Shown here: positions 3,000 through 64,000 of the stretch, piece by piece
Position numbering within the stretch: the first letter of the stretch is position 1
Layout: every line of letters begins with the position of its first letter
IMG/VR virus record: IMGVR_UViG_3300024270_002537
Reading direction: 5' to 3' (one strand)
DNA length: 64,000 nt
Source: an uncultured virus (IMG/VR IMGVR_UViG_3300024270_002537)
Lineage: Duplodnaviria > Heunggongvirae > Uroviricota > Caudoviricetes
Made by a program: the position numbers and the translations under genes
The notes under the pieces: model-generated
What the model was told of the DNA's origin: nothing
Seen by the model: the letters and a program-made list of their open reading frames with translations, nothing else
Databases searched by the model: none

Positions 3000-4580
3000 A
3001 TGGATTATAAAAAAAATGATATAGCGATTGTAACCATAGAAGATATCGGAAGTGATGGTGAGGGCATCGGTAAGGTGGACGGCTTCCCCCTTTTTGTGAA
3101 GGATGCTGTCATCGGCGATACTGTGGAAGCCAAGATTATGAAGGCTAAGAAAAATTATGCTTATGCAAGATTAGAGAAGGTGATTACGCCTTCTCCTTTT
3201 CGCGTGGAGCCCAAATGTGCTTACCACAGACAATGCGGCGGCTGCCAGGTACAGGCACTTTCCTACGAAAAGCAGCTGGAGTTTAAGGCCAAGAAGGTGC
3301 GCAATCACCTGCTGCGTATCGGCGGCTTTGAGCAGGAACTTTTGGATACTGTGATGGAGCCCATCGTAGGCATGGAGGAGCCTTATCACTATCGTAATAA
3401 GGCCCAGTACCCCGTAGGCACGGACAAAAACGGAGAGATTATCACCGGCTTTTATGCAGGCAGAACCCATAGCATTATTGCCAATACGGAGTGTTATCTG
3501 GGAGTGCCCGGTAATAAAGAGATTTTGGAATATATTTTAGACTATATGAAGCAGAACAGGGTGACTGCTTATAACGAGGAGACCGGAGAGGGCTGTGTGC
3601 GCCATGTGCTTATACGTACCGGCTTTACCAGCGGAGAAATCATGGTTTGTCTGGTTATCAACGGCAGGGATAAAAAGCGCTGCAAGGCCGGAGAATACCT
3701 GCCTGCTCAGGAGAAACTGCTGGAGAGCTTGACAAAGATATCCGGTATGACCGGTATCTCCGTCAGCATCAATACAGAAAAAACCAATGTCATCATGGGC
3801 CGCGAAGTGCATACAATCTGGGGAGAGGATACCATTTCCGACGTCATCCACGTGCGTGACATGAAAAAGGAAGGTTATCCACAGACCGGGCAGCAGCTGA
3901 CCTTTAAGATTTCACCCCTGTCCTTTTACCAGGTGAACCCTGTACAGACTGAGAAGCTGTACAGCCTGGCACTGGAATATGCAGGACTTACCGGTCAGGA
4001 AACGGTGTGGGATTTGTACTGCGGTATCGGTACCATCTCCCTGTTTTTGGCCGGCAGTGCCAAGAAGGTCTGTGGCGTGGAAATCGTACCACAGGCCATA
4101 GAGGATGCCAGGGAAAATGCCAAGCGAAACCATATAACCAATGCAGAATTCTTCGTAGGAAAGGCAGAGGAGATACTTCCGGAATTTTATGAAAAGATGA
4201 GTGGTGAAGCACAGGCTGGCGGTGTGGCGGCAGAGCCGGGCAAGGAAGGCCAGGCACCGGACATGCTTCATCCCGATGTCATCGTGGTGGACCCGCCCCG
4301 CAAGGGCTGCGACGAAGCCTGCCTGGATACCATGCTGAAGATGCACCCTGAGCGAATTGTTTATGTCAGCTGCGATAGTGCTACAATGGCCAGGGATGTG
4401 AAGATATTGTGCGAAGGCGGATATGAGCTGAAGAAAGTGAGGCCTGTGGACCAGTTCGGGCACACGGTGCATGTTGAGACGGTGTGTCTCTTGAGCAACC
4501 GAAAATCCAAGCCCGATTCTTACGTAGACTTAAGCATCAATATGGAAGATTACCATAGAATTAAGAACGAAGAGAAATAA
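3000..4580 (+). CDS. rlmD: 23S rRNA (uracil-1939-C5)-methyltransferase RlmD/RumA, with C-terminal tail supplied by the prophage
   Basis: TRAM domain, CxxxxxCGGC, SFYQVN, DLYCGIG, VDPPRKG, YVSC, DQFGHTVHVETV. Sequence after 4477 is element-derived. Confidence 0.95.
   Translation: MDYKKNDIAIVTIEDIGSDGEGIGKVDGFPLFVKDAVIGDTVEAKIMKAKKNYAYARLEKVITPSPFRVEPKCAYHRQCGGCQVQALSYEKQLEFKAKKVRNHLLRIGGFEQELLDTVMEPIVGMEEPYHYRNKAQYPVGTDKNGEIITGFYAGRTHSIIANTECYLGVPGNKEILEYILDYMKQNRVTAYNEETGEGCVRHVLIRTGFTSGEIMVCLVINGRDKKRCKAGEYLPAQEKLLESLTKISGMTGISVSINTEKTNVIMGREVHTIWGEDTISDVIHVRDMKKEGYPQTGQQLTFKISPLSFYQVNPVQTEKLYSLALEYAGLTGQETVWDLYCGIGTISLFLAGSAKKVCGVEIVPQAIEDARENAKRNHITNAEFFVGKAEEILPEFYEKMSGEAQAGGVAAEPGKEGQAPDMLHPDVIVVDPPRKGCDEACLDTMLKMHPERIVYVSCDSATMARDVKILCEGGYELKKVRPVDQFGHTVHVETVCLLSNRKSKPDSYVDLSINMEDYHRIKNEEK
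4458..4509 (+). other. attL, crossover dinucleotide GA at 4476-4477
   Basis: CATGTT-GA-GACGGTGTGTCTC-TTGAGCAACCGAAAATCCA. The right arm is the 18/19 inverted complement of 62804-62822, with 13-nt spacers on both sides. Confidence 0.9.
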
Positions 4581-7028: not shown

Positions 7029-7029
7029 T

Positions 7030-7072: not shown

Positions 7073-7076
7073 CTTT

Positions 7077-7289
7077 CTATTTGCTAATGTCTTCATAAGG
7101 CTCCACGTACTGTTCCTGAATGTGTTTGTAAAGGCAGTTATCAGATTCTACATAGATGTCATAACAAACGTCCTCACTGTATTGGAAAGTCCCGTATGCA
7201 TCAATGATAGCGATTTTCCCAATTTTGACTTTGCCGTTTATTAAAAATTGAACTGGGTCTTCGTATTTGAATTTTGGCTTTCCTATCAT
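7077..7289 (-). CDS. hypothetical small beta-rich (SH3/KOW-like) protein
   Basis: 70-aa ORF, last gene of the minus-strand operon. Confidence 0.65.
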   Translation of the reverse strand: MIGKPKFKYEDPVQFLINGKVKIGKIAIIDAYGTFQYSEDVCYDIYVESDNCLYKHIQEQYVEPYEDISK

Positions 7290-7292
7290 ATT

Positions 7293-13392: not shown

Positions 13393-13425
13393 TATATTAG
13401 ACTTAAAAATCGAGAGGTGTTAGGT

Positions 13426-15945
13426 ATGTTAAAAGATAATACTTTGACTTACATAAGTTTGTTTAGCTGTGCAGGGGTCGGATGTTTCGGTTTTAAGAAA
13501 GCCGGTTTTGAATGCATTGCAACGAATGAACTTATTGAAAGACGTTTGAATGTTCAAAAGTTCAATAATAAATGTAGATTTGATTCAGGGTATATATGTG
13601 ATGATATTACTACAGATGAAACAAAGAAAAAAATATTTGACGAAATAAAACGATGGGAAAAATTGGGCAACGATAGGGTTGATGTACTGATTGCAACGCC
13701 TCCATGTCAAGGAATGTCTGTAGCAAACCATAAAAAAGCAGAAGATGAGATTGTACGTAATAGCTTAGTTGTTGAGTCAATTAAAATTGTGCAGTCAATT
13801 AAGCCGAGATTCTTTATTTTTGAAAATGTACCGGCGTTTATGAAGACTGGTTGTACAGCACCTGATGGAGCTGTTAAAGCCATTGGCGATGTTATCGTGG
13901 AAGAATTAAGTGGCGAATATACCATTACAAGCAGAGTATTAAATTTTAAAAATTATGGTTCAAATTCTTCTCGTACCAGAACCGTTGTGATTGGTGTTTG
14001 TAAAGAGTTGTCAGAGTATATTGCTCCTATTGAACTGTATCCACAGTATAGAGAGGAAAAAATTCTTAGAGAAGTGATTGGCGATATGAAGTCCTTAGAA
14101 TGGGGAGAAATTGCAAGCGATGACTTTTATCATGCATTTCGTACCTATCCTGAGGAAATGCGTGCATGGATTCATGATCTAAAGGAAGGGCAAGGCGCAT
14201 TTGAAAATGCTGATCCACTAAAGAGACCGCATAAGATTGTAGATGGTAAAATTGTGCCTAATCAGCAGAAGAATGGAGACAAATATACTCGTCAATATTG
14301 GGATAAAGTAGGTCCTTGCATTCATACAAGAAATGACCAGTTAGCGAGTCAAAATACGGTCCATCCATGTGATGACAGAGTATTTAGCATTAGGGAATTG
14401 ATGAAAATAATGACAATTCCGGATGAGTTCAAGTGGGTGGCTTATTCGCTGGATGAGTTAAACGGGCTGAATGATAAAGAAAAACATTCAGTTCTAAAAA
14501 AAGAAGAAATCAAGATTCGTCAGAGTATAGGAGAAGCGGTTCCTACGGCCATATTCTTTAGCATTGCAAGGAATATAGTAGATTTTATGCAGCAGAAGCA
14601 TCTTCCTACAGCAATGATAGCTCAGGTTATAAAAAATAATCAATTAGATTGCCCTGAAAATCTGATCAATTTTTTGCGGGAAAATCCAATGAACTTAGGT
14701 ATTTCTTCATTGGCAAGAATTGCTGAATTGACGAATACGCAGAGAGAAAATAATTCTGCATATTATACAAATAAATATATTGTCAATGAAATAGCTAATG
14801 ATTTGCCGGAATATGATAAAGAAGATGTATATATTTTGGAGCCATCTGTTGGAGTGGGTAATTTTTTGCCAATAGTTTTTAAGAAATATGAAGCAATAAA
14901 AAGATTGCACATAGACGTGGTTGATATTGACGATAAAAATTTGGAACTTCTAAAAATATTGGTTGCAAAGATGGGTGTTCCGAGTAATGTTGAGTTGCGC
15001 TATATATGCGATGATTTTTTGCTACATGAATTTAAGCAGACATATGATCTGGTAATTGGTAATCCGCCATTTACTAAGATGAAAGCAGGGGAGGCTAGTA
15101 AATACCTTGCGAATAACTTAAATAAGGAAACGACAAATACATTTGAGTTTTTTCTGGAAAAAGCTATAAATATCGGAGAGTTTGTTGCTATGATTACACC
15201 GAAAGCGTTGCTTAACACGCCAGAGTTTTCAGTTACCAGAAATTGGTTACAAGATATGAATATATCATGTATTCAGGATTTTGGTGAAAAAGGGTTTAAA
15301 GGTGTTTTGGTTGAAACTATCTGTATTTTTATAAATAAAAATAAGAAGCCGGGAAAAACACTTATAAAATCTGCGACATTACAATTACAAATGTTACAAG
15401 AGCAAAAATACGTCACAGATAGTCAGTTTCCGTATTGGTTGATTTATCGCAATGAATTTTTTGATCGAGTATCTGCGAAAATGGATTTTGATAAGTTTAC
15501 GGTTTTTAGAGATAGGCAGATAACAAACAGTAATACTATTTCCGAAAAGAAAGCTGATTCAGTTAGAGTAATAAAGTCGAGAAATATAAGTGATAATGGA
15601 CGTGAAATAATCGATATTCCGGGATATGATGCTTATATAATGAGAGACACTGCAAAAAAATTGAGTGCATTTAAGTTTCTGGGAGATCAAAGAGTATACT
15701 TGACTCCTAATATGACATATAAGCCGCGAGTAATGAAAAATGGAGAAAACGTATTGGTTAATGGTTCTGTTGCGATTCTTATACCAAAAACTGATATTGA
15801 ATTGACGCAGGAGCAGATGGAATATTTTTCAACGGAAGAATATAGAACTTTTTATCAGATTGCAAGAAATTACCAAACCAGATCCTTAAATGTTGACGCC
15901 ACAAGTGTATTCTTTTACGGTGTTCTGAAGGAGGAGAGATCATGA
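13426..15945 (+). CDS. bifunctional fused DNA methyltransferase (C5-cytosine + N6-adenine), M.HpyAV-like architecture
   Basis: N-half FSCAGVG, PPCQG, ENV, QSIGEAVP. C-half LEPSVGVGNF, GNPPF. Confidence 0.88.
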   Translation: MLKDNTLTYISLFSCAGVGCFGFKKAGFECIATNELIERRLNVQKFNNKCRFDSGYICDDITTDETKKKIFDEIKRWEKLGNDRVDVLIATPPCQGMSVANHKKAEDEIVRNSLVVESIKIVQSIKPRFFIFENVPAFMKTGCTAPDGAVKAIGDVIVEELSGEYTITSRVLNFKNYGSNSSRTRTVVIGVCKELSEYIAPIELYPQYREEKILREVIGDMKSLEWGEIASDDFYHAFRTYPEEMRAWIHDLKEGQGAFENADPLKRPHKIVDGKIVPNQQKNGDKYTRQYWDKVGPCIHTRNDQLASQNTVHPCDDRVFSIRELMKIMTIPDEFKWVAYSLDELNGLNDKEKHSVLKKEEIKIRQSIGEAVPTAIFFSIARNIVDFMQQKHLPTAMIAQVIKNNQLDCPENLINFLRENPMNLGISSLARIAELTNTQRENNSAYYTNKYIVNEIANDLPEYDKEDVYILEPSVGVGNFLPIVFKKYEAIKRLHIDVVDIDDKNLELLKILVAKMGVPSNVELRYICDDFLLHEFKQTYDLVIGNPPFTKMKAGEASKYLANNLNKETTNTFEFFLEKAINIGEFVAMITPKALLNTPEFSVTRNWLQDMNISCIQDFGEKGFKGVLVETICIFINKNKKPGKTLIKSATLQLQMLQEQKYVTDSQFPYWLIYRNEFFDRVSAKMDFDKFTVFRDRQITNSNTISEKKADSVRVIKSRNISDNGREIIDIPGYDAYIMRDTAKKLSAFKFLGDQRVYLTPNMTYKPRVMKNGENVLVNGSVAILIPKTDIELTQEQMEYFSTEEYRTFYQIARNYQTRSLNVDATSVFFYGVLKEERS

Positions 15946-17162
15946 ATGAGGCGCAGATACAAAAATTTTTAGATGAACATAATTATGATGTTAGGATAAC
16001 ACACAATGGGCGTTGGATTGATCAAAAGTGTACTATGGATGTTGTTTGTCTGGTTGCAGATTGTATAATAGAGTTTGTGAACAGTCGTCCTGAGAAAACA
16101 TTCACTGTTAATGATATATGGTACAATGAGTATACGGTGGAAAACGTTCAACAGATATTTAGCAAGCCAAACCCGAGTGAAAAAGCATCAAATGAATACG
16201 ATAAGTATTTTGGACAGCCAATTAAGCTACTTGATGCGGCAGGTGTAATACACGGAGAAAAGCAAGGAAGCCGTTATGTTTACGAGATCGTTAATTATGA
16301 TATTCTTGAATATATAAGTTTTAGAGAGAGAAACAGCTATACATTTCTTTGTCTATATATAGAAAAAGTTTTGCGCGACAGCGGTATTTACAGACTGTTT
16401 GAATATTTTTTTAGGTTGCAAGATAAGAACTCTTTTAAAGATTTAAAAGATGGATATACGGAATTTACAATCAAGAATACACCAATTAACGGAGCAACAG
16501 AATGTGGCCGTATCTTTACAAAAGTATTAAATCCGTTAGCATGTAAGTATCGCAAATGCGGAACGGAAAGAGGCCATCTATCCAAAGATGTTATCACGCA
16601 GGATATGATTTTGTATAACCAGAGAAACTGGAGAGATATTTTATCTGAGAAACCGAAAGATATGACACGAGTGGAGTACGAAGTCACATTGCCTAAACCA
16701 GATGAAGACTATATGACAGCGTACCGTATCAATCGAGCTAAACGAAATCTACGTAGATTTAATGATTTGTATAGAAACGGAAGAACCGAGGTGTATGATG
16801 AGCGACATATTGCGGATTGGGCGACACAGATGCATCATATTTTTCCTGCGAGTGATTACCCAACAATTGCAGACTATTTGGAAAATTTAATTGCGTTGAC
16901 TCCGACACAGCATTTTACATATGCTCATCCGAATAACAATACACAATATATTGACAGAATGTATCAGTATATGTGCCTGATATCGAAAACAGGTACAATA
17001 AGAGAAAATTTAAAGAATAAGAATAATGTACCGGTGATATATGACTTTTATCTTTTCCAAACAGTTCTTAGTACAGGGTTGGAAACGGAAGAGTTTTATA
17101 AAGTTAAAGATATGGATTTTGAGCAGATTCTTAATTTGATCGAAGTACATTATGAGGGTTAA
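15942..17162 (+). CDS. HNH-type restriction endonuclease (HpyAV/Hin4II-like)
   Basis: NYDVR..NGRWIDQKCT N-terminus, QMHHIFP...ENLIALTPTQHF..AHP. Translationally coupled to the MTase (ATGA). Confidence 0.75.
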   Translation: MNEAQIQKFLDEHNYDVRITHNGRWIDQKCTMDVVCLVADCIIEFVNSRPEKTFTVNDIWYNEYTVENVQQIFSKPNPSEKASNEYDKYFGQPIKLLDAAGVIHGEKQGSRYVYEIVNYDILEYISFRERNSYTFLCLYIEKVLRDSGIYRLFEYFFRLQDKNSFKDLKDGYTEFTIKNTPINGATECGRIFTKVLNPLACKYRKCGTERGHLSKDVITQDMILYNQRNWRDILSEKPKDMTRVEYEVTLPKPDEDYMTAYRINRAKRNLRRFNDLYRNGRTEVYDERHIADWATQMHHIFPASDYPTIADYLENLIALTPTQHFTYAHPNNNTQYIDRMYQYMCLISKTGTIRENLKNKNNVPVIYDFYLFQTVLSTGLETEEFYKVKDMDFEQILNLIEVHYEG

Positions 17163-17165
17163 ACT

Positions 17166-17792
17166 ATGAGAGGTTATGTTTACGGAAGAAATGGACAAGT
17201 TGTATTTTCATCGTCCGAAGAATTTTATTATACATTAGGTTTTTTGGCGGATTCAAGAAGAGCAGCTATTTATTGGGAACATAATGAGGATCAAGGAGCG
17301 TGGGGAAGTGAGGGACGAATTCACTGCTTGATTTCAGAAGAATTATTTCCAGCATTTTTTAAGTTTACGGCTGGAAGGGGGTCTGGTGTCTATGCAAGAA
17401 TCAACTGTAATGATTATGTAGGCTGTCTGGTTGAGGATCATAAATTCAAAACAAGAGGCGTAAGACAGAATGTTGAAGAGATAATGTCAACAGTACCGGA
17501 TCAATATAGAGACATTTTCTTAAAAGGTTATGGCGGAAAGATTGATGAGCGTTTATTAAAAAAAGCAACAATTAGTGCATCACCAGCTAAAAAGAGTGGC
17601 ATAAATCTTACCGGAAATAATGTAACAAAAAAGATTGTTGCCAAAGTAGGAGAAAAAGTGCAGCATAAAAAGTTCGGAGTAGGCGTTGTTAAAAAAATAT
17701 CTGGAACCAACATGACTGTTACATTTGGAAAAGAGGATAAATTCTTCCAGTATCCAGGGGCTTTTGAACAAGGTTTTTTGACTAAATTATAA
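17166..17792 (+). CDS. hypothetical protein with C-terminal Tudor/SH3-like domain
   Basis: KVGEKVQHKKFGVGVV resembles the UvrD/PcrA C-terminal Tudor motif. Confidence 0.7.
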   Translation: MRGYVYGRNGQVVFSSSEEFYYTLGFLADSRRAAIYWEHNEDQGAWGSEGRIHCLISEELFPAFFKFTAGRGSGVYARINCNDYVGCLVEDHKFKTRGVRQNVEEIMSTVPDQYRDIFLKGYGGKIDERLLKKATISASPAKKSGINLTGNNVTKKIVAKVGEKVQHKKFGVGVVKKISGTNMTVTFGKEDKFFQYPGAFEQGFLTKL

Positions 17793-17806
17793 ATGGAGGA
17801 GTTGTC

Positions 17807-19051
17807 ATGAAAGAAGCTGACTGGAGAGAGAAAATACAACAATTTCTAAATGCGCATAACTACGATTTGAGGAAAAAGCGAGTAAATAAGCGATGGATGG
17901 ATCAGAAATGCGCATTTGATGTTGTAAGTTTTCTGGCTGAATGTATTCTTGAATATACACAGGAAGATAATGACAAAGCTTTTAAGCGAACTGACATATG
18001 GCACAGCCCATTTGCTATAAATGGCGTAAAGTATGATTTTAAGAAGACCGATGCCGAAACTATGACAGAAAATGAGTATGATAAGTTTTTTGGTAATAGT
18101 ATAGGGATGCTTCATTATGCGGGAATCTTAAAAGGTCGGAAAGCAAAAAAAGGGCAAGGGAAACCATATATCTATCATGTCAGTAATAGGGACCTTTTAG
18201 AATTTATATCAGTTCGACCTAAAAATGCACTGATCTTTCTTCAGATGTATATAAAAAAAGTATTGATTGATAGCGATATCTATACGCCATTTGAAGAGTT
18301 TTTCCAGAGGCAGGATTATGAATCGTTAGCTGCCTGTAGAACATGTTTTAAGGCATTTCTTCAGAAACACACTGGAATACGGAGACCAACTGAACCAAAC
18401 AAAATATTTATCAAGGTAATTAACCCATTGGCTAATGCCGAAAATAAGAAAGGTTATGTAGGAAAGACTGTTTCTGTAGGGCCGATAACATTGGCAGATT
18501 TAGGTTATCAAAGAGACAATTGGTATGATGAATATTTGAAAAAACCTAAAAATGTGTCAAGAAGAGAGCATAGGGAGAATTTGCCAGATAGTGGTTTAAG
18601 CATAGAACTAGAACACAGATCAACAAGAGGCAAGAATAAAGTAAGAAATTATAATAGGGATTACAATAATGCTCATTCCGAGTTGAATGATGAATTTTAT
18701 ACTGACGGTAGTGTAGAAATACATCATATATTTCCGAAACATGATCCGGATTATCAGGTTTTAGTAGACAAATACGAGAATTTAATAGCATTAACGATAT
18801 CACAACATAGAGATCATGCTCATCCAAATGCCCGAATGCGTGAAATTGTGAAAGAATACCAGAGAGCATGTATTTTACAAAAGATTGAGACCGTAAAAGA
18901 AGATGAAGAAACAAATGGAGGTGCCTTATATAATTTTGAATCTCTGGTACAGGTGTTGTCGATCGGATTTGATTCAGGTGAATTTATGGAAGTTGCTGAT
19001 GGAGATTATGATGCACTAAAATCTTTAGTAGAGGATTATTATAATAAATAG
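17807..19051 (+). CDS. second HNH-type restriction endonuclease paralog
   Basis: NYDLRK..RWMDQKC, NEYDKFFG, EIHHIFP...ENLIALTISQHRDHAHP, collinear with 15942-17162. Confidence 0.72.
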   Translation: MKEADWREKIQQFLNAHNYDLRKKRVNKRWMDQKCAFDVVSFLAECILEYTQEDNDKAFKRTDIWHSPFAINGVKYDFKKTDAETMTENEYDKFFGNSIGMLHYAGILKGRKAKKGQGKPYIYHVSNRDLLEFISVRPKNALIFLQMYIKKVLIDSDIYTPFEEFFQRQDYESLAACRTCFKAFLQKHTGIRRPTEPNKIFIKVINPLANAENKKGYVGKTVSVGPITLADLGYQRDNWYDEYLKKPKNVSRREHRENLPDSGLSIELEHRSTRGKNKVRNYNRDYNNAHSELNDEFYTDGSVEIHHIFPKHDPDYQVLVDKYENLIALTISQHRDHAHPNARMREIVKEYQRACILQKIETVKEDEETNGGALYNFESLVQVLSIGFDSGEFMEVADGDYDALKSLVEDYYNK

Positions 19052-19058
19052 TCCATAA

Positions 19059-20042
19059 GTGGGGGTGGAAGCGGTGCCGGTAATTGTACAACCGAATCCA
19101 GAAGACAGGAAGAGAGACTTATTAGAAAAACAAAAACGGATAAGAGACCGTAGAAAGCGATTAGAAGAGCAGAAACAGAAAAGGGCTGGAGTGCAAAAGA
19201 AGAGTGTAAGGCAAGGAAGTAAAGAGACGCTTCCGGGAATTGCGGTGAATACTATGCTCAGAAATGCAGTGATGGTACCTTCAAAAGTACGATACACATT
19301 TTCTGCTGCGGAAATTGAAAAGTTTTATTTTCATAATAAAAGCTTTCAAGCGGTAATGAATACTGGGGATTATTTCTACTATGATAATCATTTGGTGCTA
19401 ATGACTAAAGATGCCTTTTCTATGAAAAATGGTAGATTAGTACTAAATAAGGAATTGCCCGATTTTGAAAAAAAGTATTGTGTACAATGTAAAGAAGAGC
19501 GAATTTCTCATGTGGCGAATAGTCAAGCTCGTTTAGAAGATGGGCAGGTTGCCAATATCCCCTTAAAGGCTTACATTGTTGCTACAAAATTTATCCACGC
19601 AACTGAACACACCACAATTACAGGTAAAATCAAATCAGAGTTTACGGATTTTTTAATGTTATTTCAGGGAACTGGATATGGAGGTGATCCACCATTTGAC
19701 ACATTTGGTGGAACTTTATCGATGTATATGGAACTGGAAAATATAACAAATGAATATATGTGTGAATTAACCGAGATTTCCACCAGGACGATACAGCGGT
19801 ATAGAAATAATCAAGGTGATCCAGAATTGCCATATGTGGTTGCAATATGTATAGCATTAAAATTATTACCATCATTGAGTATAAGGATGGTGGAATTGGC
19901 GGGTTATACATTCCGCGGCACTAAAAGAGATGTAGCCTATTTATTTTTGTTAAACACAGAATACAAAAATGGCGATGTTGCAAGGTGTAATAATATTCTT
20001 ACAAAACTTGATCTAAAACCACTTACGAAAAAATGTAGTTAG
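19059..20042 (+). CDS. XRE-HTH protein homologous to the C-terminal half of the downstream ImmA-HTH protein
   Basis: TFGGTL...EISTRTIQRYRN...VVAICIALKL. Start uncertain. Confidence 0.7.
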   Translation: MGVEAVPVIVQPNPEDRKRDLLEKQKRIRDRRKRLEEQKQKRAGVQKKSVRQGSKETLPGIAVNTMLRNAVMVPSKVRYTFSAAEIEKFYFHNKSFQAVMNTGDYFYYDNHLVLMTKDAFSMKNGRLVLNKELPDFEKKYCVQCKEERISHVANSQARLEDGQVANIPLKAYIVATKFIHATEHTTITGKIKSEFTDFLMLFQGTGYGGDPPFDTFGGTLSMYMELENITNEYMCELTEISTRTIQRYRNNQGDPELPYVVAICIALKLLPSLSIRMVELAGYTFRGTKRDVAYLFLLNTEYKNGDVARCNNILTKLDLKPLTKKCS

Positions 20043-20052
20043 GAGGCAGCCT

Positions 20053-21954
20053 ATGGCGAAAGACCGTTCATTTACAAATTATGTGGCAGACAGATTTTAC
20101 AATGAACTGTTTGATGCCATAAAAAATTTTATTAGGAATGATCCGGGGAAACTGGACTTATATCTTTATAAAGTGAAGAATATGAGTCACGCATGGTTAA
20201 ATGATATTTATGTCCGTGCGGTTTCAGTGAATGATTGCCCGGAGATGAGAATTACATTTACAGTGATTGTGGAAGCCGATATGGGTGCAAGAGAATCCGA
20301 TTATCACTATGATGAAACGGAAGAATGCGGACAGTGGTTTTCAGTTGAATGTAGCGGAGATTTGGCATGTGACTTAAACGATTTTGCAGTACATAGTGTA
20401 GATGTATATAATGGAAAGAAGTTTCAGCCGGTACCCTTGTCTGATGCGTTGGTGCCATATATTTCTGCGGAAGAATATGAAGAGGTTGCACTGGATTTTT
20501 TAAGACGGAACTATCCGGAGGCTTTGCAGAAACCAATGGCAATAGAGCCTGATGTTCTTGCAAAGAAAATGGGCTTAGACATCATGGTGCATCAAATCAC
20601 AGATGATTTTTCCGTGTTTGGCGAAATTTTCTTTTGTGATTCTGAAACAAAATTATATGATGCTGCTACGGGAGAGTACATTGATACTCACATAAATGGA
20701 AAAACAATCGTGGTAGATCCGCAAGCATATTTTTTGCGAAATCTCGGCTCTGTCAACAATACAATCATACATGAATGTGTACATTGGGACAAACATAGAA
20801 AGGCATTTGAATTGGAGCGCCTTTTTAACAAAAGCGCAACACAGATAAAGTGCCAGGTTGTTGGTGGCGTAAAGGACAGTGGAAACATGGGTGCAACAGA
20901 CTGGATGGAGAGACATGCTAATGCACTGGCTCCACGAATCCAGATGCCGTTACCTACGTTTAAAATGAAAGCGCATGAATATATAAGAGAATGCCAGAAG
21001 GAATCTGGAAGCTTCAATATTGTAGATGTTATGGAGTGGGTCATTGATTCTTTGGCTACATTCTTCTGCGTGTCACGTTGTGCAGCAAAGATAAGAATGG
21101 TGGATGCCGGATACGAAGAAGCGATAGGTGTCTTTACGTATGTGGATGATCATTATGTGAGACCGCATTGTTTTAAGAAAGGTGCTATCGGGAGAAATCA
21201 GACATTCTCTATCAGTCTTCAGGATGCTTTAGTAGAAAGTGCATTTTCTCCAAAGCTCAAAGAAAAACTGCAAAGTGGTAATTATTTGTATGTTGATTCG
21301 CATTTTTGCTTCAACAGTTCTAAGTATATTACAGAGGATGAAGAGGGAAAAATCTGCCTTACAGATTATGCACGCCACCATATGGATGAATGCTGTCTGG
21401 TGTTTGACCTGAAAGTTAAGGCAATAAACAAGTATGGTGAACAGTTTTTTACGGAATGTGTGTTGTATCGAGATGCGGCATCCGGTGTCGTTTTCATAGC
21501 AAATTATTCCGATAATAACAGCGACCATCAGAAGCAGATTGATACCATCAAACAGTATAATCAGGATTTATTAGCTGTGATTAGAACCTTGCCACAATCA
21601 TTTTCAGGGGCATTGGACGCATTGATTAAGTGGTCCGAAATGACAGAAGAAGAGTTGGCATGGGAATCCGGTCTTAGCGAAAAAACTATCCAACGTTTAA
21701 GAAATCAAGAGCCGGATAGTGTCACGATTGAAACAGTGGTTCAGTTATGTATTGGAATGCAGTTACCGCCACAGTTGAGTAGCATATTGATGAGATGTTC
21801 GGGAAATAATTTTATGATGACGGAACAGCATATCATGTATCAATTTCTGTTGGGCTCATGTTATACATCCACTTTGGATGAGTGTAATGAGATGTTGGAA
21901 TCACAGAATCTGAAGCCTTTGGGTAGAAAAAACAGAAGTTCTGCAAATATTTAA
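20053..21954 (+). CDS. ImmA/IrrE-family metallopeptidase with C-terminal XRE HTH (probable repressor/antirepressor)
   Basis: NTIIHECVH (HExxH), WMERHANALAPRIQMP, LSEKTIQRLRN. Confidence 0.85.
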   Translation: MAKDRSFTNYVADRFYNELFDAIKNFIRNDPGKLDLYLYKVKNMSHAWLNDIYVRAVSVNDCPEMRITFTVIVEADMGARESDYHYDETEECGQWFSVECSGDLACDLNDFAVHSVDVYNGKKFQPVPLSDALVPYISAEEYEEVALDFLRRNYPEALQKPMAIEPDVLAKKMGLDIMVHQITDDFSVFGEIFFCDSETKLYDAATGEYIDTHINGKTIVVDPQAYFLRNLGSVNNTIIHECVHWDKHRKAFELERLFNKSATQIKCQVVGGVKDSGNMGATDWMERHANALAPRIQMPLPTFKMKAHEYIRECQKESGSFNIVDVMEWVIDSLATFFCVSRCAAKIRMVDAGYEEAIGVFTYVDDHYVRPHCFKKGAIGRNQTFSISLQDALVESAFSPKLKEKLQSGNYLYVDSHFCFNSSKYITEDEEGKICLTDYARHHMDECCLVFDLKVKAINKYGEQFFTECVLYRDAASGVVFIANYSDNNSDHQKQIDTIKQYNQDLLAVIRTLPQSFSGALDALIKWSEMTEEELAWESGLSEKTIQRLRNQEPDSVTIETVVQLCIGMQLPPQLSSILMRCSGNNFMMTEQHIMYQFLLGSCYTSTLDECNEMLESQNLKPLGRKNRSSANI

Positions 21955-37664: not shown

Positions 37665-37865
37665 ATGGAAAAAGTGAGTGGAACATTAAGCAACGTTCCG
37701 GGAATTGCAAATTATGAGAGCTTGAATGACAAGCCACAGATAAATGGTATGGTACTATCAGGGAATAAAACAGCAAAGGAACTGGGCCTTGCACCAGCAA
37801 GTCAGGTGGAGCAGTTGCAAAAGACGATAGATGGTCTTGTGGATGGAAATGAGGTGGCATACTGA
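37665..37865 (+). CDS. small tail-fibre-repeat-like protein
   Basis: NYESLNDKPQINGMVLSGNKTAKELGL. Confidence 0.6.
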   Translation: MEKVSGTLSNVPGIANYESLNDKPQINGMVLSGNKTAKELGLAPASQVEQLQKTIDGLVDGNEVAY

Positions 37866-39373
37866 TGGGAAATGTATTAGTGAAAGAAGAAACTCTGACA
37901 CTGATTGCAGATGCCATTCGTGAGAAAAGTGGTAGTAGTGATTCTTACAGACCAGGGGAAATGCCGGAGGCTATTCTGGACATTTCCACATACAGTGGGG
38001 AGGGTGCAGATCCGAATAAGCCGATTCGATTTTATGGACCATATGGAGATTTGATATACAGTTATACTTTTGCTGAGATTTCAGAATTGACAGAGTTGCC
38101 GCCATTACCGGAGTATAAAGGTCTGGTAGGACAAGAGTGGAACTGGTCATTGGAGAATATCCTTGCAGAAGGAAGTGAATTAGAAATTGCTTCTATGTAC
38201 ATCACAGATGATGGAGCCACAAGAATATATGTTACTTTGGACGAGGAAACCGTATCTCCTAAAATCGGTTTTATACAAGAAAATGCAAATTCAGTAAGGA
38301 TTGATTGGGGAGATGGTAGTCCTATGGAGTCTTCGGATGTCTATGGCACTTCAAATTTGGTTAGTGTCGAACATAGTTATGAGAAACCAGGGAATTATGT
38401 GATTCGCCTTGTCCCTGATGAGGGAGCAAAGTTTTGGCTTGAAGGAAGTACAAACGGAACCTGTATACTTCATAAGATTGCCAGAGGATCACTGGAAAAT
38501 ATGATTTTTTCAAATTGCATCTACAAAGTGGAGCTTGGGAGAGGCATAACTTCGTTAAGGGAAGGTACCTTTTGTAGTTACACTATAAAAACAGTGACGA
38601 TACCGAAAGAAATATCTGATTTTGGGAGAGGATTTCAAAAATGTTATGCTTTAGAATACTTGCCGTTTCCGAAAGGTGTGGATGATTTAACAAGTTCTGC
38701 TTTTGAAGGAAGTTGTTCATTGAAAAGGGTTATCTTTTCCGACACACACCTTTTCATGGAACAATATGCGTTTCATAATTGTACACAGTTAGAACACGTT
38801 GTTTTATCTTCAAAAGTAAAAGTGCATGGGTCATATGTCTTGGCCGGAAATAAGAAAATTGAAAAATTAGATTTATCAAAACAGAGTACAGAAATAAGTG
38901 AAAGTTCATTTTACGATTGCTCTAACTTAAAAGAAGTGATAATGCAAAAAACATTATGGAAAATTGGACAGAGTGCTTTCCGTTCATGTGATATGTTACA
39001 GGAAATAGAAGTGCCAGACACAGTGAATCAAATAGGTTCATACGCATTTGGTGATTGTCCTTCGCTTAGAAAAATAAATATACCTGAAGGGATAACGACA
39101 CTTCCGAGTAGCCTATTTTATGGATGCTATTCATTACAGGAAATCATAATACCTTCTACGGTTACTGAGATAGGGGCATATGCATTTAATAAATGCTATG
39201 GACTTCAAAGATATTATTTGTATCCAACAATTCCACCAACGCTTAGCAGAAGTTTGGACCTTGCGGCAACGGAAGGGATTGTGATTTATGTTCCGAAAGG
39301 ATGTCTGGAAGCATATCAAACGGCGGAGTATTGGAAAACTTATGCAGATTGCATGGTAGAAATGGAGGAATAA
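37865..39373 (+). CDS. BspA-type leucine-rich-repeat protein with PKD-like segment
   Basis: IDWGDGS, repeated IGxxAFxxCxxLxxIxIP. Confidence 0.85.
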   Translation: MGNVLVKEETLTLIADAIREKSGSSDSYRPGEMPEAILDISTYSGEGADPNKPIRFYGPYGDLIYSYTFAEISELTELPPLPEYKGLVGQEWNWSLENILAEGSELEIASMYITDDGATRIYVTLDEETVSPKIGFIQENANSVRIDWGDGSPMESSDVYGTSNLVSVEHSYEKPGNYVIRLVPDEGAKFWLEGSTNGTCILHKIARGSLENMIFSNCIYKVELGRGITSLREGTFCSYTIKTVTIPKEISDFGRGFQKCYALEYLPFPKGVDDLTSSAFEGSCSLKRVIFSDTHLFMEQYAFHNCTQLEHVVLSSKVKVHGSYVLAGNKKIEKLDLSKQSTEISESSFYDCSNLKEVIMQKTLWKIGQSAFRSCDMLQEIEVPDTVNQIGSYAFGDCPSLRKINIPEGITTLPSSLFYGCYSLQEIIIPSTVTEIGAYAFNKCYGLQRYYLYPTIPPTLSRSLDLAATEGIVIYVPKGCLEAYQTAEYWKTYADCMVEMEE

Positions 39374-59289: not shown

Positions 59290-61173
59290 ATGATGAGAAA
59301 GAAAAAATGTTATATATACACCAGAGTATCCACGATGGCTCAGACAGAGGGTTACAGTTTGGAAGCACAAGTCGAAAGGCTCCGTGAATACGCTGAATAT
59401 AGAAATTTGCAGATTGTTGGTGAATACTGTGACGCGGGTAAATCCGGAAAAAGCATAAAAGGAAGACCGGCTTTTCAGGAGATGATGGATGACATTGTAA
59501 ATGGGAAAGATGATGTTTCCTATGTGTTGGTATTCAAGTTATCCAGATTCGGAAGAAACGCTGCAGACGTTCTTAAATCCATGCAGTTACTGAATGATTA
59601 TGATGTGGATTTGGTATGTGTGGATGATGCGATAGATAGTTCCACACAGGGCGGAAGACTCACTCTGGCGATTCTCTCAGCCGTAGCCGAAATTGAGAGA
59701 GAAAACATAACCGTTCAGTTCAATGCCGGTAGGATGCAGAAAGTTTTGGAAGGTGGATGGCCTGGTGGACCAGTTCCGTATGGGTATAGAAACATCAAAA
59801 AACAGATGCAGATTGAACCCACGGAAGCGGAGTTGGTTAAGAAAATGTTTGAAGCATTTCTTATAGATGGAATGACAACCACATCCGTAGCGGCTTATAT
59901 GAATGAACAAGGATACCGCAGAGTGATTAAAGGCGAAGAAAGACCATTTACCTATGACTTTGTTGCAAATGCGTTGGAGAATCCGTTTTATTGTGGAAAG
60001 ATTCTGTACGGGAAACGAAGTAAGAAAAAAGATGTCATGGTCATACAGGGGATTCATGAACCGATTGTAGATGAAGATTTATGGAAACAAGTGCAAGCGA
60101 AAAGAAAAGAATTATCTGTGAAATGGCAAAAGGTAGATGATCCTGAGCGAATCAGCATACTATCCGGTTTGGTTAAATGCCCGCTGTGTGGCAAAGGCAT
60201 GATTGCAACAAAGAATAAGCATGTGAATAAGAACAGAGGTGGTCATTATAAAACCATTCATTATTATTCATGTAGGAATCATCGTAAATCCAGTGGTCGT
60301 GAATGTTCTTTTACTCGCCAACTTAATCAGTCAAAGATTGATTCCAGTGTGTTTGAAATCTTTTCTGGGATTACAGCGTTGCCGGAATACCATGAGATGA
60401 TTGCGAATGTGCTAGGGAATCAGCCTTCTGTGGAACTATTGGAAAACGAATTGAAAGCCCTGAGGAAACAGCTTAGAAGTTATGAAACCCAGAAACGAAA
60501 ACTGGGAGAGGAGTTGGATGGGCTTGATATTCTGGATGATGATTATGATGAAAACTACGATAGGATACAGTCTGAGATGGATGAAATCTATGACAGAATG
60601 GATGATGCAGAATCTGCTATATCGAAGATAAAAAAGAAACTGTCTGCGACTAAGAATGGAATCCGTTCTATTGAAAAGGTCAAGGAGTTGGTGGAACATA
60701 TGCAGTTGCTCTTTCCTAAAATGACCTGTGACGAGCAAAAGGAGATGTACCGATTGTTCATTGAACGAATAGACATTTATCCGGAAGAACAAGATAATGG
60801 GAAGCTGATAAAAAGTATCACCTTTAAGTTTCCTGTTTATTATGAAGATTATGAGACAGTACCTACTAAAACACCGGATGATCAGATTGGATTTGTATTA
60901 GATTGCAGTACATTAGGTCTGACGGTGGCAGAGGCAAAAGCAACATATGCAGAGATTAAAGCATATGTGAAAGAAAAGTATGGTGCTCCTGTTCATTCGT
61001 TATATATTGCTCAGATTAAAAAGAAATATGGTTTGGACATGGGGGTAAATTACAACCTATCCAAAAAGGAAAATGCAAGAGTTCCGACCTGTCCTAAAGA
61101 GAAAGAGGCGTACATTGTGGATGCATTGAAACATTTTAGGATGTTGGACATGTCGGTGGAAATGGAGGCGTAG
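59290..61173 (+). CDS. large serine recombinase 1 with extra C-terminal HTH-like domain
   Basis: YTRVST, DAGKSG, KLSRFGRN, LSGLVKCPLCG zinc ribbon, coiled coil, then KATYAEIKAYV...DALKHF. Confidence 0.93.
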   Translation: MMRKKKCYIYTRVSTMAQTEGYSLEAQVERLREYAEYRNLQIVGEYCDAGKSGKSIKGRPAFQEMMDDIVNGKDDVSYVLVFKLSRFGRNAADVLKSMQLLNDYDVDLVCVDDAIDSSTQGGRLTLAILSAVAEIERENITVQFNAGRMQKVLEGGWPGGPVPYGYRNIKKQMQIEPTEAELVKKMFEAFLIDGMTTTSVAAYMNEQGYRRVIKGEERPFTYDFVANALENPFYCGKILYGKRSKKKDVMVIQGIHEPIVDEDLWKQVQAKRKELSVKWQKVDDPERISILSGLVKCPLCGKGMIATKNKHVNKNRGGHYKTIHYYSCRNHRKSSGRECSFTRQLNQSKIDSSVFEIFSGITALPEYHEMIANVLGNQPSVELLENELKALRKQLRSYETQKRKLGEELDGLDILDDDYDENYDRIQSEMDEIYDRMDDAESAISKIKKKLSATKNGIRSIEKVKELVEHMQLLFPKMTCDEQKEMYRLFIERIDIYPEEQDNGKLIKSITFKFPVYYEDYETVPTKTPDDQIGFVLDCSTLGLTVAEAKATYAEIKAYVKEKYGAPVHSLYIAQIKKKYGLDMGVNYNLSKKENARVPTCPKEKEAYIVDALKHFRMLDMSVEMEA

Positions 61174-61176: not shown

Positions 61177-63249
61177 GTGAAAAGTAAAAGATTAAAATGT
61201 TATATATACATCAGAGTATCAACCGCAATGCAGGTAGATGGATACAGTTTGGAAGCCCAGAATGATAGACTTACAAAATATGCAGAATTTCAGGGGATGG
61301 AAGTTGTTAAGGTTTATTGCGATGCTGGTAAATCCGGAAAGAACATTACAGGCAGACCGGAGTTCACACAGATGCTTCAGGATGTGGCGGATGGAAAAGA
61401 TGGTGTTGATTACATTCTGGTATTCAAGTTATCGCGTTTTGGAAGAAATGCTGCTGATGTATTAAATTCATTGCAATACATACAAGATTTTGGTGTAAAC
61501 CTTATCTGTGTGGAAGATGGAATTGATTCATCAAAGGACTCTGGAAAACTTACCATCACGGTATTATCTGCTGTTGCAGAAATTGAGCGTGAGAACATTC
61601 TGGTTCAGACAATGGAAGGAAGAAAGCAGAAAGCCAGAGAGGGAAAATGGAATGGTGGTCAGGCACCATTTGGGTACACACTGGATTCTAAGAACAGCAC
61701 TCTGATTGTGAACCCGGAAGAAGCTGAATTGGTAAAACTCATTTATGAGAAATATGTATATGAAGACATGGGATTGGATACAATAGCAAACTTCCTGAAT
61801 GACCGTGGTTATAAAAAGAAGAAGACCAGAAGACGTGAATTGGATTATTTTACAAGGGGAACAGTAAAGAACATTCTGGACAATCCGGTATATGCGGGTA
61901 AAATCGCATACGGGAAAAATGTTACCGAAAAGGTCAAGGGTACCAGAGACCAGTTCCGAAGAGTTAAGAGCGACGAATATCTTTTGGTAGATGGTCTCCA
62001 TGATGCCATCATTGATGAAGAATTGTGGATGCAGACCAAAGCCAAAAGAAAAATAACCGGGGTAAAATGGAACAAGACACATAGTCTGGAGCATGAACAC
62101 ATTTTATCTGGCATTATAAAATGTCCGATATGTGGACATGGTCTGAGTGGTACGGTAAGACGTCGCAAGAATAAGAAAACCGGAGACTATGTGGATGATT
62201 TCTATTATCGCTGTCAACACAGACACAAGATTGATGACGAGCATTTTTGTAATTTTCAACCGTCTCTTAATCAGAATGATTTTAACCGTGAAGTGGAGCA
62301 AGTGATTCTGGATATGGTAAACCATGAGAGCTTCCGTCAATTTGTTATGGAGAAGGTTAATACAAAAGTTGATGTAAGTGCTCTGGAAGAAGAACGTGAG
62401 AGAATCAGAAAGTTGCTCAGACAGGTAATGGGGGCGAAAACAAAGCTCACAGACATGCTTGATAAACTGGATGTAATGGATAAGCATTATGACCGAAAGT
62501 ATCAGGACATGCATGACAGACTGGATAATCTGTATGATAAGATTTCCGAATATGAAGACAGCATTGCAGATATCACAGCGAGAATTGAAGCTGTATATGG
62601 AAATCAGATTACCGGAAAGCAGATATATGACATTCTGGTACATTTTGAAATGATGTATTATAAAATGACGGACCTTGAAAAGAAAGAGTTTATGAAAGAC
62701 TTCATAAACAGTATAGAACTTTATCCAGAAAAGATGTATAATGGAAGCATCGTGAAACAGATAAATTTTAAGTTCGGTGTTTATTATGAAGGGCAAGAAA
62801 CTATGGATATTCGGTTGCTCAACGAAAAAACAGTCGAGACAGTAGCATTATTAAGTCGGCAAATCAACGTGCATAAAATGAAGTTAAATTCTACACCTTT
62901 TGAAATGATAAAGAGCGGAGAAAAAACGATTGAACTCCGCTTGTTTGATGAAAAACGTCAACAAGTAAAAGTGGGTGACAAGGTTATTTTTACAAATACT
63001 ACTACCGGTGAAATGCTCAACAGAACCGTTGTAAAATTGCACCGTTTTGATAGCTTTGAAGAATTGTACAAGTCTTTGCCGCTTTTACAATGTGGATATA
63101 CAGTAAGTGATGTTGACAGTGCAAAGCCATCTGATATGGAACAGTATTATTCAATTGAAGAACAGAATCAATATGGTGTTGTTGGAATCGAACTTTGTCG
63201 ACATAAAGAAATTACAGACGAGAGTGTTTGTCTGTTGTCAAGAAAATAG
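61177..63249 (+). CDS. large serine integrase 2, reading through attR into an ASCH domain
   Basis: YIRVST, LSGIIKCPICG, coiled coil. After TVETVALLS: HKMKL...MIKSGEKTIELRLFDEKRQQVKVGD (ASCH/PUA-like). Confidence 0.92.
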   Translation: MKSKRLKCYIYIRVSTAMQVDGYSLEAQNDRLTKYAEFQGMEVVKVYCDAGKSGKNITGRPEFTQMLQDVADGKDGVDYILVFKLSRFGRNAADVLNSLQYIQDFGVNLICVEDGIDSSKDSGKLTITVLSAVAEIERENILVQTMEGRKQKAREGKWNGGQAPFGYTLDSKNSTLIVNPEEAELVKLIYEKYVYEDMGLDTIANFLNDRGYKKKKTRRRELDYFTRGTVKNILDNPVYAGKIAYGKNVTEKVKGTRDQFRRVKSDEYLLVDGLHDAIIDEELWMQTKAKRKITGVKWNKTHSLEHEHILSGIIKCPICGHGLSGTVRRRKNKKTGDYVDDFYYRCQHRHKIDDEHFCNFQPSLNQNDFNREVEQVILDMVNHESFRQFVMEKVNTKVDVSALEEERERIRKLLRQVMGAKTKLTDMLDKLDVMDKHYDRKYQDMHDRLDNLYDKISEYEDSIADITARIEAVYGNQITGKQIYDILVHFEMMYYKMTDLEKKEFMKDFINSIELYPEKMYNGSIVKQINFKFGVYYEGQETMDIRLLNEKTVETVALLSRQINVHKMKLNSTPFEMIKSGEKTIELRLFDEKRQQVKVGDKVIFTNTTTGEMLNRTVVKLHRFDSFEELYKSLPLLQCGYTVSDVDSAKPSDMEQYYSIEEQNQYGVVGIELCRHKEITDESVCLLSRK
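62804..62863 (+). other. attR of the prophage (GA at 62836-62837), doubling as the left junction of the ASCH cassette
   Basis: TGGATATTCGGTTGCTCAA-CGAAAAAACAGTC-GA-GACAGTAGCATTA-TTAAGTCGGCAAA. Confidence 0.9.
62838..63221 (+). mobile_element. putative 384-bp integrase-less in-frame ASCH cassette
   Basis: Bounded by two rlmD-end-like motifs (VETVALLS / DESVCLLSRK) with 11/13 inverted arms at the same 13-nt spacing as the phage attP. Confidence 0.6.
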
Positions 63250-63272
63250 TATGAATTTAGCAAAGGGGAAGT

Positions 63273-63635
63273 ATGATGAAGAGTGAAAAACAAGAAAGAT
63301 ATTTAGACAACCTGTTGCTTAGAGGAATGGTGGATGTTCGTAAATTGGCCGGTGTTGCTAATGCGAAAAAACTTCCTAATGGTGAATTTGGTTTTTGTCT
63401 TATGTGTCTTAATGGCAGTACTTTGAATCTTTATGATACTAATTTCGAACAAGAAGTGGGAGAACTTCTTTATTCTATAGATTTGAAAAAAATAGCAAAT
63501 CTTAAAACAAGTTCATTTATATTAAATAGTTATATCAAATTTACTTATGAAGGATTCAACTACAAGTTAGCAGATTGTGCATATAAAGAACTCTATTCTG
63601 CAATTGAAAAGGAAGTAAAAGATATTTTTAATTAA
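63273..63635 (+). CDS. hypothetical protein (AT-rich)
   Basis: 120-aa ORF with RBS AAGGGG. Confidence 0.7.
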   Translation: MMKSEKQERYLDNLLLRGMVDVRKLAGVANAKKLPNGEFGFCLMCLNGSTLNLYDTNFEQEVGELLYSIDLKKIANLKTSSFILNSYIKFTYEGFNYKLADCAYKELYSAIEKEVKDIFN

Positions 63636-63648
63636 GGAGAACTTGAAA

Positions 63649-63684
63649 TAGGGGATAAATCCAAAAACGTGGATTTATCCCCTA
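63649..63684. terminator. hairpin, probable terminator
   Basis: TAGGGGATAAATCC-aaaaacgt-GGATTTATCCCCTA. Confidence 0.6.
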
Positions 63685-63767
63685 AATTTATCTATGGTGA
63701 AATATGTGTTGACTGTAGGTGTCAAGTGTCGTACAATTTATTTATGCAATGCATAAAGGAGACGATG

Positions 63768-64000
63768 TATGGAAGCAAGAGAGGAATTAAGAAAATTAAG
63801 AGAAAGTACCGGTATGAACCGAAAAGAATTTTGCGAGTATTTTGAAATACCTTATATGACGGTGACAGACTGGGAATTGGGGAATAGAAGGGTTCCACCA
63901 TATCTTTTGCGATTGATGGCATATAAGATTCAGATGGAGAAACTGGCTGATAAGAAAGGTGAGAAATACGATGGAAGAAACTACAGGATTGATGACAGTA
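63768..64000 (+). CDS. XRE-family HTH regulator (runs off window)
   Basis: Translated by hand: MEAREELRKLRESTGMNRKEFCEYFEIPYMTVTDWELGNRRVPPY, RBS AAGGAG. Confidence 0.8.

Follow-up and report, generated by a model that had tools for sequence, protein, structure and literature searches.

The locus treated here raises the question of how a complete protein domain, with neither a start nor a stop of its own, came to lie between the integrase gene of a prophage and a second copy of the end of its target gene. It is found at the right end of a 64,000-nucleotide (nt) stretch of DNA from an uncultured tailed virus (IMG/VR record IMGVR_UViG_3300024270_002537), referred to as the window, in which a 58-kb prophage interrupts the 3′ end of rlmD, a uracil-5 methyltransferase gene. 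Positions 62836-63219 are read as a non-autonomous integrative cassette between two half-sites of a serine-integrase-type attachment (att) site, which would be moved by a recombinase of the rlmD-targeting family; a probability of about 0.62 is given to this reading. Comparison of loci shows, at the level of sequence, that the cassette is a discrete, recurrent and horizontally distributed unit that is always bounded by GA. The parts of the segment and its right-hand neighbour are as follows:

62838..62863, + strand: cassette left arm, consisting of a 13-nt spacer (GACAGTAGCATTA) and the inverted repeat TTAAGTCGGCAAA (62851-63); its DNA is conserved in 10 other loci
62878..63195, + strand: complete ASCH/PUA-like domain (M..GVVGIEL), from Pfam, phmmer and AlphaFold2 (AF2)/Foldseek
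63194..63221, + strand: cassette right arm, consisting of the inverted repeat TTTGTCGACATAA (63194-206), a 13-nt spacer (AGAAATTACAGAC) and the GA core (63220-21)
63222..63249, + strand: second RlmD-type tail, (E)SVCLLSRK and stop

The open reading frame (ORF) of the second prophage integrase (61177-63249, 690 amino acids (aa)) passes through the GA at 62836-37 and the GA at 63220-21 without a stop. The 384 nt of 62836-63219 make up 128 codons with no in-frame stop, and the other five frames contain 3-15 stops each. The initial annotation had described a stop-free, in-frame ASCH segment of this length between two GA dinucleotides, and the frame count and the Pfam search bear it out in every detail. 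Its claim that both junctions read like the end of RlmD likewise agrees with the ORF translation, which gives KTVE/TVALLSRQINVHK on the left and EITD/ESVCLLSRK followed by a stop on the right (a slash marks the junction here and below). The left arm encodes (E)TVALLSRQ, replacing the C-terminal strand of RlmD. The second RlmD-type tail either belongs to the original gene, as its end, or forms the left terminus of another island. The arms TTAAGTCGGCAAA and TTTGTCGACATAA are complementary at 11 of 13 positions and both lie 13 nt inside their own GA, a geometry already claimed to be phage-like and indeed the same as that of the prophage ends; of 20000 shuffles, only 4 came to 11/13 in any symmetric 13-nt window. 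A single ASCH domain takes up the 384 nt, with no recombinase or transfer gene inside, and no Shine-Dalgarno-like purine run was seen, on reading by eye, in the 25 nt upstream of the ASCH ATG at 62878.

The identity of the domain is indicated by both profile and fold. The Pfam family ASCH (PF04266) scores 31.9 bits for 62878-63249, above the gathering cut-off of 21.2, and 29.0 bits within the 690-aa ORF. In phmmer, query residues 4-106 were aligned to residues 8-105 of the 109-aa protein PH0355 (2Z0T; E 1.8e-10), and an end-to-end alignment was also obtained with the single-domain archaeal protein PF0455 (1S04). The AF2 model has a predicted local distance difference test score (pLDDT) of 80, and the top Foldseek match is again 2Z0T (E 6.7e-9, template modelling (TM) score 0.80), followed by 1S04, 3IUW, YqfB (9KYH) and ZmASCH. 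The likeness in fold to YqfB, an N4-acetylcytidine (ac4C) amidohydrolase, and to ZmASCH is found at 12-16% identity. The cassette segment is thus predicted to fold into a complete ASCH/PUA-like barrel. The arm-encoded residues (1-10 and 125-137) are disordered in the model and so behave as linkers. A median ratio of nonsynonymous to synonymous substitution rates (dN/dS) of 0.078 among 10 cassettes shows that the domain is under strong purifying selection. The share of identical codons among copies is higher in the arms than in the interior (0.86 vs 0.74, Mann-Whitney p = 0.008).

The search for further copies was made at both the protein and the DNA level. The protein search gave 1477 relatives in the range 75-240 aa and 595 above 240 aa, of which 120 per size class were listed, and 241 proteins were compared; the DNA comparison covered 37 bacterial loci from species-representative genomes. 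Exactly 384 nt separate the two GAs in 10 of the 37 loci (species-level Clostridia genomes), as in the window, and in one further locus the distance is 381 nt. A GA is present at both junctions in all 11 copies, and beyond the GAs the host sequences are unrelated and differ from locus to locus. The arms of the other copies, CTTTGCCGACCTAAAGAAATTACAGAC/GA and GA/RACGGTAGCATTATTAAGTCGGCAAATC, are better matched than those of the window. In the arm consensus (TTTGCCGAC.TAA and TTAAGTCGGCAAA) positions 9-17 agree in 8-11 of the 11 copies, and an inverted repeat of 9-12 nt is kept. Conservation of the protein starts at E-T/S-V-x-L-L-S-R-Q-I-N-V-H-K-M and ends at ..C-R-P-K-x-I-T-D-E, and the tails after this right end vary every time (SVVCLTRK, NVALLVRQ, TVCLMVKI and others). 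The segment had been proposed to be a discrete, integrase-less unit with arms conserved among its homologues, and the fixed length and the GA-centred inverted arms of 10 other loci support this. None of the three findings that the initial annotation named as refuting its reading applies outright.

The domain follows the RlmD body in 97 of the 241 proteins, 33 of which have the xTDE right end. It is placed behind serine integrases in at least four of the 241 (P0123, P0129, P0190 and P0208), and it also comes after unrelated sequences, among them other cassette-like ends (..ITDE/SVV.. in P0091, P0105, P0072 and P0210). The suggestion that the cassette appends a domain to whichever gene lies upstream is therefore upheld for RlmD, integrases and other cassettes. 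A related recombinase was present within the examined flanks at 1 of the 37 loci only.

Two loci have features of their own. At locus L002 (3198-3600) both cassette junctions continue past the GA with the same 15 bases (GAGTGTGGCGTTGTT), and a further relic RlmD end (..RTAHVETVVLLEKR and stop) lies ~1.7 kb downstream; taken together, these features point to gene conversion or repeated stacking. Locus L150 (G066:C3, 2-1420, minus strand) contains a divergent ASCH domain (56% identity) in a 756-aa frame, between an N-terminal part of ~215 aa and ArgJ. It has no cassette arms and was not counted as a cassette; the frame apparently arose by stop loss and read-through into argJ.

The cassette is not confined to rlmD and integrase genes. 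The CopA-type ATPase P0148 is 965 aa long, its 119 nearest listed homologues have 828-842 aa, and none of these contains ASCH. In alignment, seven of these homologues lack exactly 128 residues at ..V-(E/D)/F-x-x-PGNG, where P0148 has an insert that reads (E)TVALLSRQ..AITD. As the insert amounts to exactly 128 codons at V-(E/D), the target was a GTN-GA site, and GA is now found at both junctions. Such an arrangement fits what conservative exchange at a GA dinucleotide would give. In the PfkB kinase P0167 a stretch of 137 residues stands in place of the 10 found in 12 homologues, and P0139 carries an internal insertion of the same kind.

Cargo other than ASCH is also encountered between ends of this type. 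The order in P0164 is RlmD, GNAT (ESVVCLSREK...KFQPKRNTDE) and ASCH, and that in P0226 is RlmD, an unknown segment (…VAFPPKRMTDE), ASCH (…ELFPPKRMTDE) and a further tail domain. At locus L008 ASCH precedes GNAT within one 324-aa frame. Genes ending in ..ITDE or ..ITDG directly before the ASCH left arm are seen in P0091, P0105, P0072, P0025 and P0210. On comparison of these ends, several cargo types carry the same kind of termini, and their order varies. Short in-frame cassettes with similar ends, which the initial annotation had expected, were thus found with GNAT and unknown cargo. Its further proposal of an integron-like array at rlmD holds in part: in-frame arrays of two or three exist elsewhere (P0164, P0226 and L008), and the window itself contains a single cassette and no array. 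At 3955-4000 of L008 an element end, ..CTACCTAAAGGGACAACTGTG/GA (..SLPKGTTVE), precedes ASCH; the same end recurs before the tail of the window in another run and is thus one more member of this family of ends.

The distribution of the cassette was next set against that of its most frequent carrier. Across 94 RlmD-ASCH fusions (4371 pairs), the pairwise identity of ASCH bears no relation to that of RlmD (Spearman -0.005). The identities of RlmD have a mean of 0.43 (range 0.26-1.0) and those of ASCH a mean of 0.75; the proteins were chosen by likeness to the query ASCH, which narrows the ASCH range, and the RlmD range is wide. ASCH is at least 0.90 identical with RlmD below 0.50 in 12 pairs, and RlmD is above 0.80 with ASCH below 0.70 in 11 pairs. 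To judge from these identities, the cassette is not co-inherited with RlmD.

Alleles with and without exactly this 384 bp, as had been predicted, both occur around locus L009. The domain is present in 3 of 12 full-length RlmD orthologues (53-100% identity), and the most similar of the others (70%) is empty. The fusion is thus not fixed, nine of the 12 close orthologues being empty. The empty alleles stop 6-14 codons past the GA (..SHIE/NIAVLQK, ..HVE/CIAFLTKDPDQI and ..HVE/TVALLRKMFS, each followed by a stop), and these endings are what the L009 gene gives once 384 nt are taken out at the GA. Among 101 sampled genomes of the same order, the starting genome included, an ASCH domain at E <= 1e-20 was found in four. 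The scan of the window's own RlmD clade took in 80 loci, in 24 of which the core was not located; the cassette was found in none of the 56 resolvable rlmD tails (43 plain, 12 with other element ends and one cut). A metagenome scan with the window RlmD returned no near-identical allele (best 71%) and none close to the RlmD of P0122 (<=72%).

Natural breakpoints at the same positions were observed in public runs, from animal gut or faeces by their records, which were compared as assembled contigs. Contigs of other runs match the 3′ end of the integrase, with 13 differences in 546 nt, and leave the window at 62845 into ..ETV/VLLSK and stop, or at 62840 into ..ETVTLLQRVK and stop, both of which are plain RlmD tails that lack ASCH. 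In a contig of 81 nt, ..LPKGTTV is followed directly by 63220-63279 with zero mismatches. A joint of 62847 to 63768 (side 39) in a single contig was set aside as not interpretable, as were the uncovered parts. Contigs L040 and L041, from two other metagenomes, contain the integrase-cassette-tail junction with identities of 100% and 99.7%. In the nearest virus record (G001) neither flank of the window is present. The protein P0122 is an RlmD whose cassette and tail are 100% identical to those of the window and which lacks the phage; this indicates that the cassette came first and that the phage entered the rlmD/cassette junction later.

Positions 5438-10260 of L040, which reach beyond position 64000 of the window, encode a 120-aa ORF, a helix-turn-helix (HTH) protein, an ORF6N protein (312 aa), a 93-aa ORF and a 903-aa DEAD/ResIII helicase. 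This content is island-like and not that of core genes, so the apparent host tail may in fact belong to a further stacked element, as its left end.

The following sequence of events is proposed. A large serine recombinase that targets rlmD, supplied by a resident phage or conjugative element, would act on the cassette, and the joined ends (right arm-GA-left arm) would recombine with the GA of the final rlmD codons, the C-terminal residues of RlmD (ETVALLSR) being re-supplied by the left arm. Since the frame stays open, the host would then make RlmD-ASCH followed by the displaced old tail. The 58-kb prophage would later have integrated at the rlmD/cassette junction, leaving ASCH attached to integrase 2. 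Between cells the cassette would most likely spread as a passenger of neighbouring elements that bear an integrase, through accretion and co-excision, or else through capture in trans.

The type of enzyme is suggested by three features: the rlmD tail is a hotspot of serine integrases, the arm geometry equals that of the adjacent prophage, and the right end of the cassette resembles integrase C-termini. The last of these, F/C-P/R-P-K-x-I-T-D-E, aligns with ..FPNEKITVE of P0208 and ..LLNEKTVE of the window. On account of this resemblance the cassette is probably a deletion derivative of a larger integrase-bearing element which has since spread as a unit. It can be read as a cis-mobilizable element shrunk to one domain. 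A wider view, put forward tentatively and judged doubtful as yet, is that gut Clostridia possess a form of domain shuffling, in which start-less and stop-less single-domain cassettes (ASCH, GNAT, small membrane proteins and unknown folds) with common ends of serine-integrase type would be spliced in frame by resident integrases into the rlmD tail and occasionally into GA sites within other genes; polyproteins and novel fusions would result, as in an analogue of the integron at the level of translation and not of transcription.

Several observations weigh against movement of the cassette by such an enzyme. Serine integrases ordinarily recombine attP with attB and not hybrid sites, and arrays would then need relaxed use of half-sites. 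The arm sequences of the cassette differ from those of the window phage, and the identity of 15 bases beyond the GA at L002 is not predicted by a 2-bp crossover. When the arm patterns were searched for in IMG/VR, the right arm gave no matches and the left arm only two contigs, relatives of the window itself; no integrase-bearing parent element with the cassette arms was found in these searches. The back-to-back right-arm/left-arm site was found in none of the viral contigs of IMG/VR. In 401 genomes the joined arm site had 29 matches at <=2 mismatches vs 10 for the control; none of them has the inner conserved bases, and they are taken as chance for that reason. The right end has been lost in 64 of the 97 RlmD-fused copies. 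The copies have a median synonymous divergence (dS) of 1.3 and nucleotide identities of 0.71-0.96, and as this divergence is old, most of them may now be immobile. Much of this would suit a dead remnant, that is, the leftover of an internal deletion in a larger serine-integrase element, comprising a cargo gene of its left end and the last integrase codons, which no longer moves itself and spreads by descent or with larger islands and co-excision. The alignment of the right end with integrase C-termini (P0208 and the window), the old divergence, the 64 truncated copies and the failure of arm-pattern and joined-site searches to find the cognate enzyme are all in its favour. It accounts poorly for a fixed 384-nt unit in hosts whose RlmD proteins are 26-50% identical with ASCH up to 100%, for the exact 128-codon insertion within CopA, for the variable order of neighbours (GNAT before or after ASCH) and for arm DNA that is conserved beyond protein constraint, and it is considered unlikely.

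The small size, the many copies, the lack of an enzyme of its own and the 13-nt inverted repeats near both ends would also suit a transposon resembling a miniature inverted-repeat transposable element (MITE), with the arms as terminal repeats for a transposase (DDE or other) in place of a serine integrase. However, the conserved unit extends 13 nt past each repeat to a GA that is shared with the target, and there is no target duplication beyond that GA, for which reasons the cassette is not regarded as a MITE; the preferred target is moreover a known hotspot of serine integrases and the geometry is that of the neighbouring prophage ends, so that this origin is very improbable. Still less credence is given to a native two-domain RlmD-ASCH enzyme with a prophage in its linker, in which the second tail and the arms would be coincidental. 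RlmD-ASCH proteins of 560-590 aa are common and annotated simply as RlmD, known ASCH members bind RNA, and YqfB and ZmASCH are among the fold matches. This proposal is already contradicted by the lack of co-divergence over the 4371 pairs, and the empty orthologues, the presence of the same unit behind integrases and inside CopA and PfkB, the duplicated RlmD tail and the arms conserved in 10 loci are further points against it. A different concern is the assembly, as the left and right flanks might come from different hosts of the same phage, in which case the RlmD product envisaged after excision would be absent in this combination. The RlmD of the window is only 60% identical to that of P0122 with cassette and tail at 100%, the guanine-plus-cytosine (GC) content drops from ~0.45 on the left (rlmD side) to 0.35 on the right (from the cassette onward), and the same phage integrase stands beside plain tails in other runs. 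The cassette and tail, perhaps with the island, may have moved recently between hosts, or the left flank may have been mis-joined via the shared phage. The reproduction of the integrase-cassette-tail junction in L040 and L041 speaks against an artefact, which is a possibility to be kept in mind but on the whole rather doubtful; given that recurrence, the cassette finding is independent of the left flank.

The gene interrupted by the prophage and the prophage itself, which precedes the cassette, have the following parts:

3000..4475, + strand: 5′ part of rlmD (TRAM and uracil-5 methyltransferase; Pfam PF05958 and PF01938), ending at the attL core
4476..4503, + strand: attL, consisting of the GA core (4476-77), a 13-nt spacer and the prophage left arm TTGAGCAACCGAA (4491-4503), an inverted match to 62810-62822
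59290..61173, + strand: large serine recombinase 1, 627 aa (Pfam Resolvase, Recombinase and Zn_ribbon_recom)
61177..62835, + strand: large serine recombinase 2 proper (Pfam Resolvase, Recombinase and Zn_ribbon_recom, with ASCH in one 690-aa ORF)
62810..62837, + strand: prophage right arm TTCGGTTGCTCAA (62810-22), a 13-nt spacer and the GA core (62836-37), at the prophage/cassette junction

The rlmD ORF is interrupted in its last codons at the GA of 4476-77 and runs into foreign DNA until 4580, the junction being translated as ..HTVHVE/TVCLLSNRKSKPDS.. and stop. The prophage arms TTGAGCAACCGAA and TTCGGTTGCTCAA are complementary at 13 of 13 positions and both lie 13 nt from their own GA; because they pair perfectly at equal distance from GA, the prophage junctions are placed at 4476 and 62836, in agreement with the initial annotation. 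The composite element between them (4476 to 62835, 58 kb) encodes ParA/ParB, a large DNA methylase, a complete tailed-phage module and serine recombinases, which are the only recombinases in the window and two of which, both large, stand in tandem at its right end.

Directly inside attL (4996-12115) are found ParA, ParB, a DUF6551 protein and a third serine recombinase (10220-12115, minus strand), a block which may be a separate element nested in or accreted to the 58-kb insert. At 13417-21954, where the GC content is 0.35-0.36, five ORFs of 208-633 aa, none with a Pfam match, stand behind an 842-aa fused C5-cytosine and N6-adenine methylase; the block has the look of a restriction or defence module borne by the element. 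A BspA-type leucine-rich-repeat protein of 502 aa (37865-39373) is encoded between the phage methylase and terminase genes.

The last ~90 aa of integrase 1 (60850-61173; ..AKATYAEIKAYVKEKYG..LYIAQIKKKYG..CPKEKE..) are homologous to a tail of ~100 aa which other rlmD-targeting elements add to RlmD. The likeness is seen with loci L089, L097, L099, L101, L121 and L140 and with the last segment of P0226, and no Pfam match was found for this tail domain. It suggests that the integrase genes of circular forms may read across attP into the tail domain, which would be swapped onto RlmD at integration. An att-like GAGACAGTA within integrase 1 (60853) was rejected as a site owing to a lack of inverted arms (14/40). 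An attempt to separate attP-type from attB-type half-sites by a shifted zinc-domain motif was dropped, the similarities being too weak.

Should serine integrases be what moves the cassette, no integrative element of their class would be smaller. The cassette would then also offer a natural case of site-specific, frame-preserving domain insertion, and so a route to new multidomain proteins; we know of no described bacterial system of this kind. An attachment site could then be written wholly in coding sequence on both arms, and the engineering of integrases would gain compact natural attP-like sites with a folded-domain payload. As regards annotation, an ASCH tail of horizontal origin is present in hundreds of proteins that go by the name RlmD, and host-side domains can be carried by the prophage integrases found at rlmD. 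The tail might affect 23S rRNA m5U1939 methylation or act on modified nucleosides, a question which can be tested.

Some features of the cassette have parallels in known systems. The palindromic elements of Rickettsia are short mobile sequences which, like the cassette, lie in frame inside coding genes and are translated. To our knowledge they have no folded domain and no known site-specific target, whereas the cassette holds a complete ASCH domain at GA cores. Integrons share with it small units of one ORF each that lack their own expression signals, an imperfect inverted repeat at the site, and arrays of variable order behind a fixed platform. The cassette differs in its serine-integrase geometry and in expression by translational fusion instead of a shared promoter. 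No IntI tyrosine integrase with attI and Pc was seen in the window, and no integrase was found near most cassettes; for want of IntI, attI and Pc the cassette is not classed as an integron.

The Ccr enzymes of the staphylococcal cassette chromosome (SCC) are large serine recombinases. SCC composite islands at rlmH (orfX) of staphylococci, which include integrase-less PsiSCC elements (10.1101/336396 and PMC13739063), resemble the cassette in targeting an rRNA-methyltransferase tail, in tandem stacking and in that some lack a recombinase. SCC elements are multi-gene islands of 3-60 kb with their own promoters and are not known to give rise to protein fusions or domain cassettes. The target is rlmH and not rlmD, and the branch of the recombinase family differs as well.

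The rlmD (rumA) tail itself is a documented hotspot of serine-recombinase integrative and conjugative elements (ICEs), integrative and mobilizable elements (IMEs) and prophages in Firmicutes, according to the reports on vanG elements (PMC4120198), of Ambroset 2016 (PMC4701971), of Coluzzi 2017 (PMC5357655) and of PMC5704250. The target gene and the recombinase class are the same, and the 58-kb prophage of the window is an ordinary member of this group; these elements encode their own integrase and the cassette does not. No description of such a cassette turned up in literature searches on ASCH domains at rumA/rlmD or with serine recombinases, on serine-recombinase elements that lack an integrase or are cis-mobilizable, and on cassettes of integron type at rumA/rlmD.

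The closest likeness is to the cis-mobilizable elements (CIMEs) of the ICESt1/ICESt3 family. These are flanked by attL and attR, lack integrase and transfer genes, lie in tandem with a functional element at the 3′ end of a conserved gene and are thought to derive from larger elements by deletions, as outlined by Guedon et al. 2017 (PMC5704250). The cassette is likewise bounded by attL/attR-type sites, without a recombinase or transfer gene and in tandem at the 3′ end of a conserved gene. Known CIMEs measure kilobases, depend on tyrosine integrases and contain ordinary genes, whereas the cassette is 384 nt with serine-type sites and one start-less, stop-less domain in frame. What is new here is the size, the single-domain payload without a start or a stop, and the frame-preserving insertion that produces fusion proteins.

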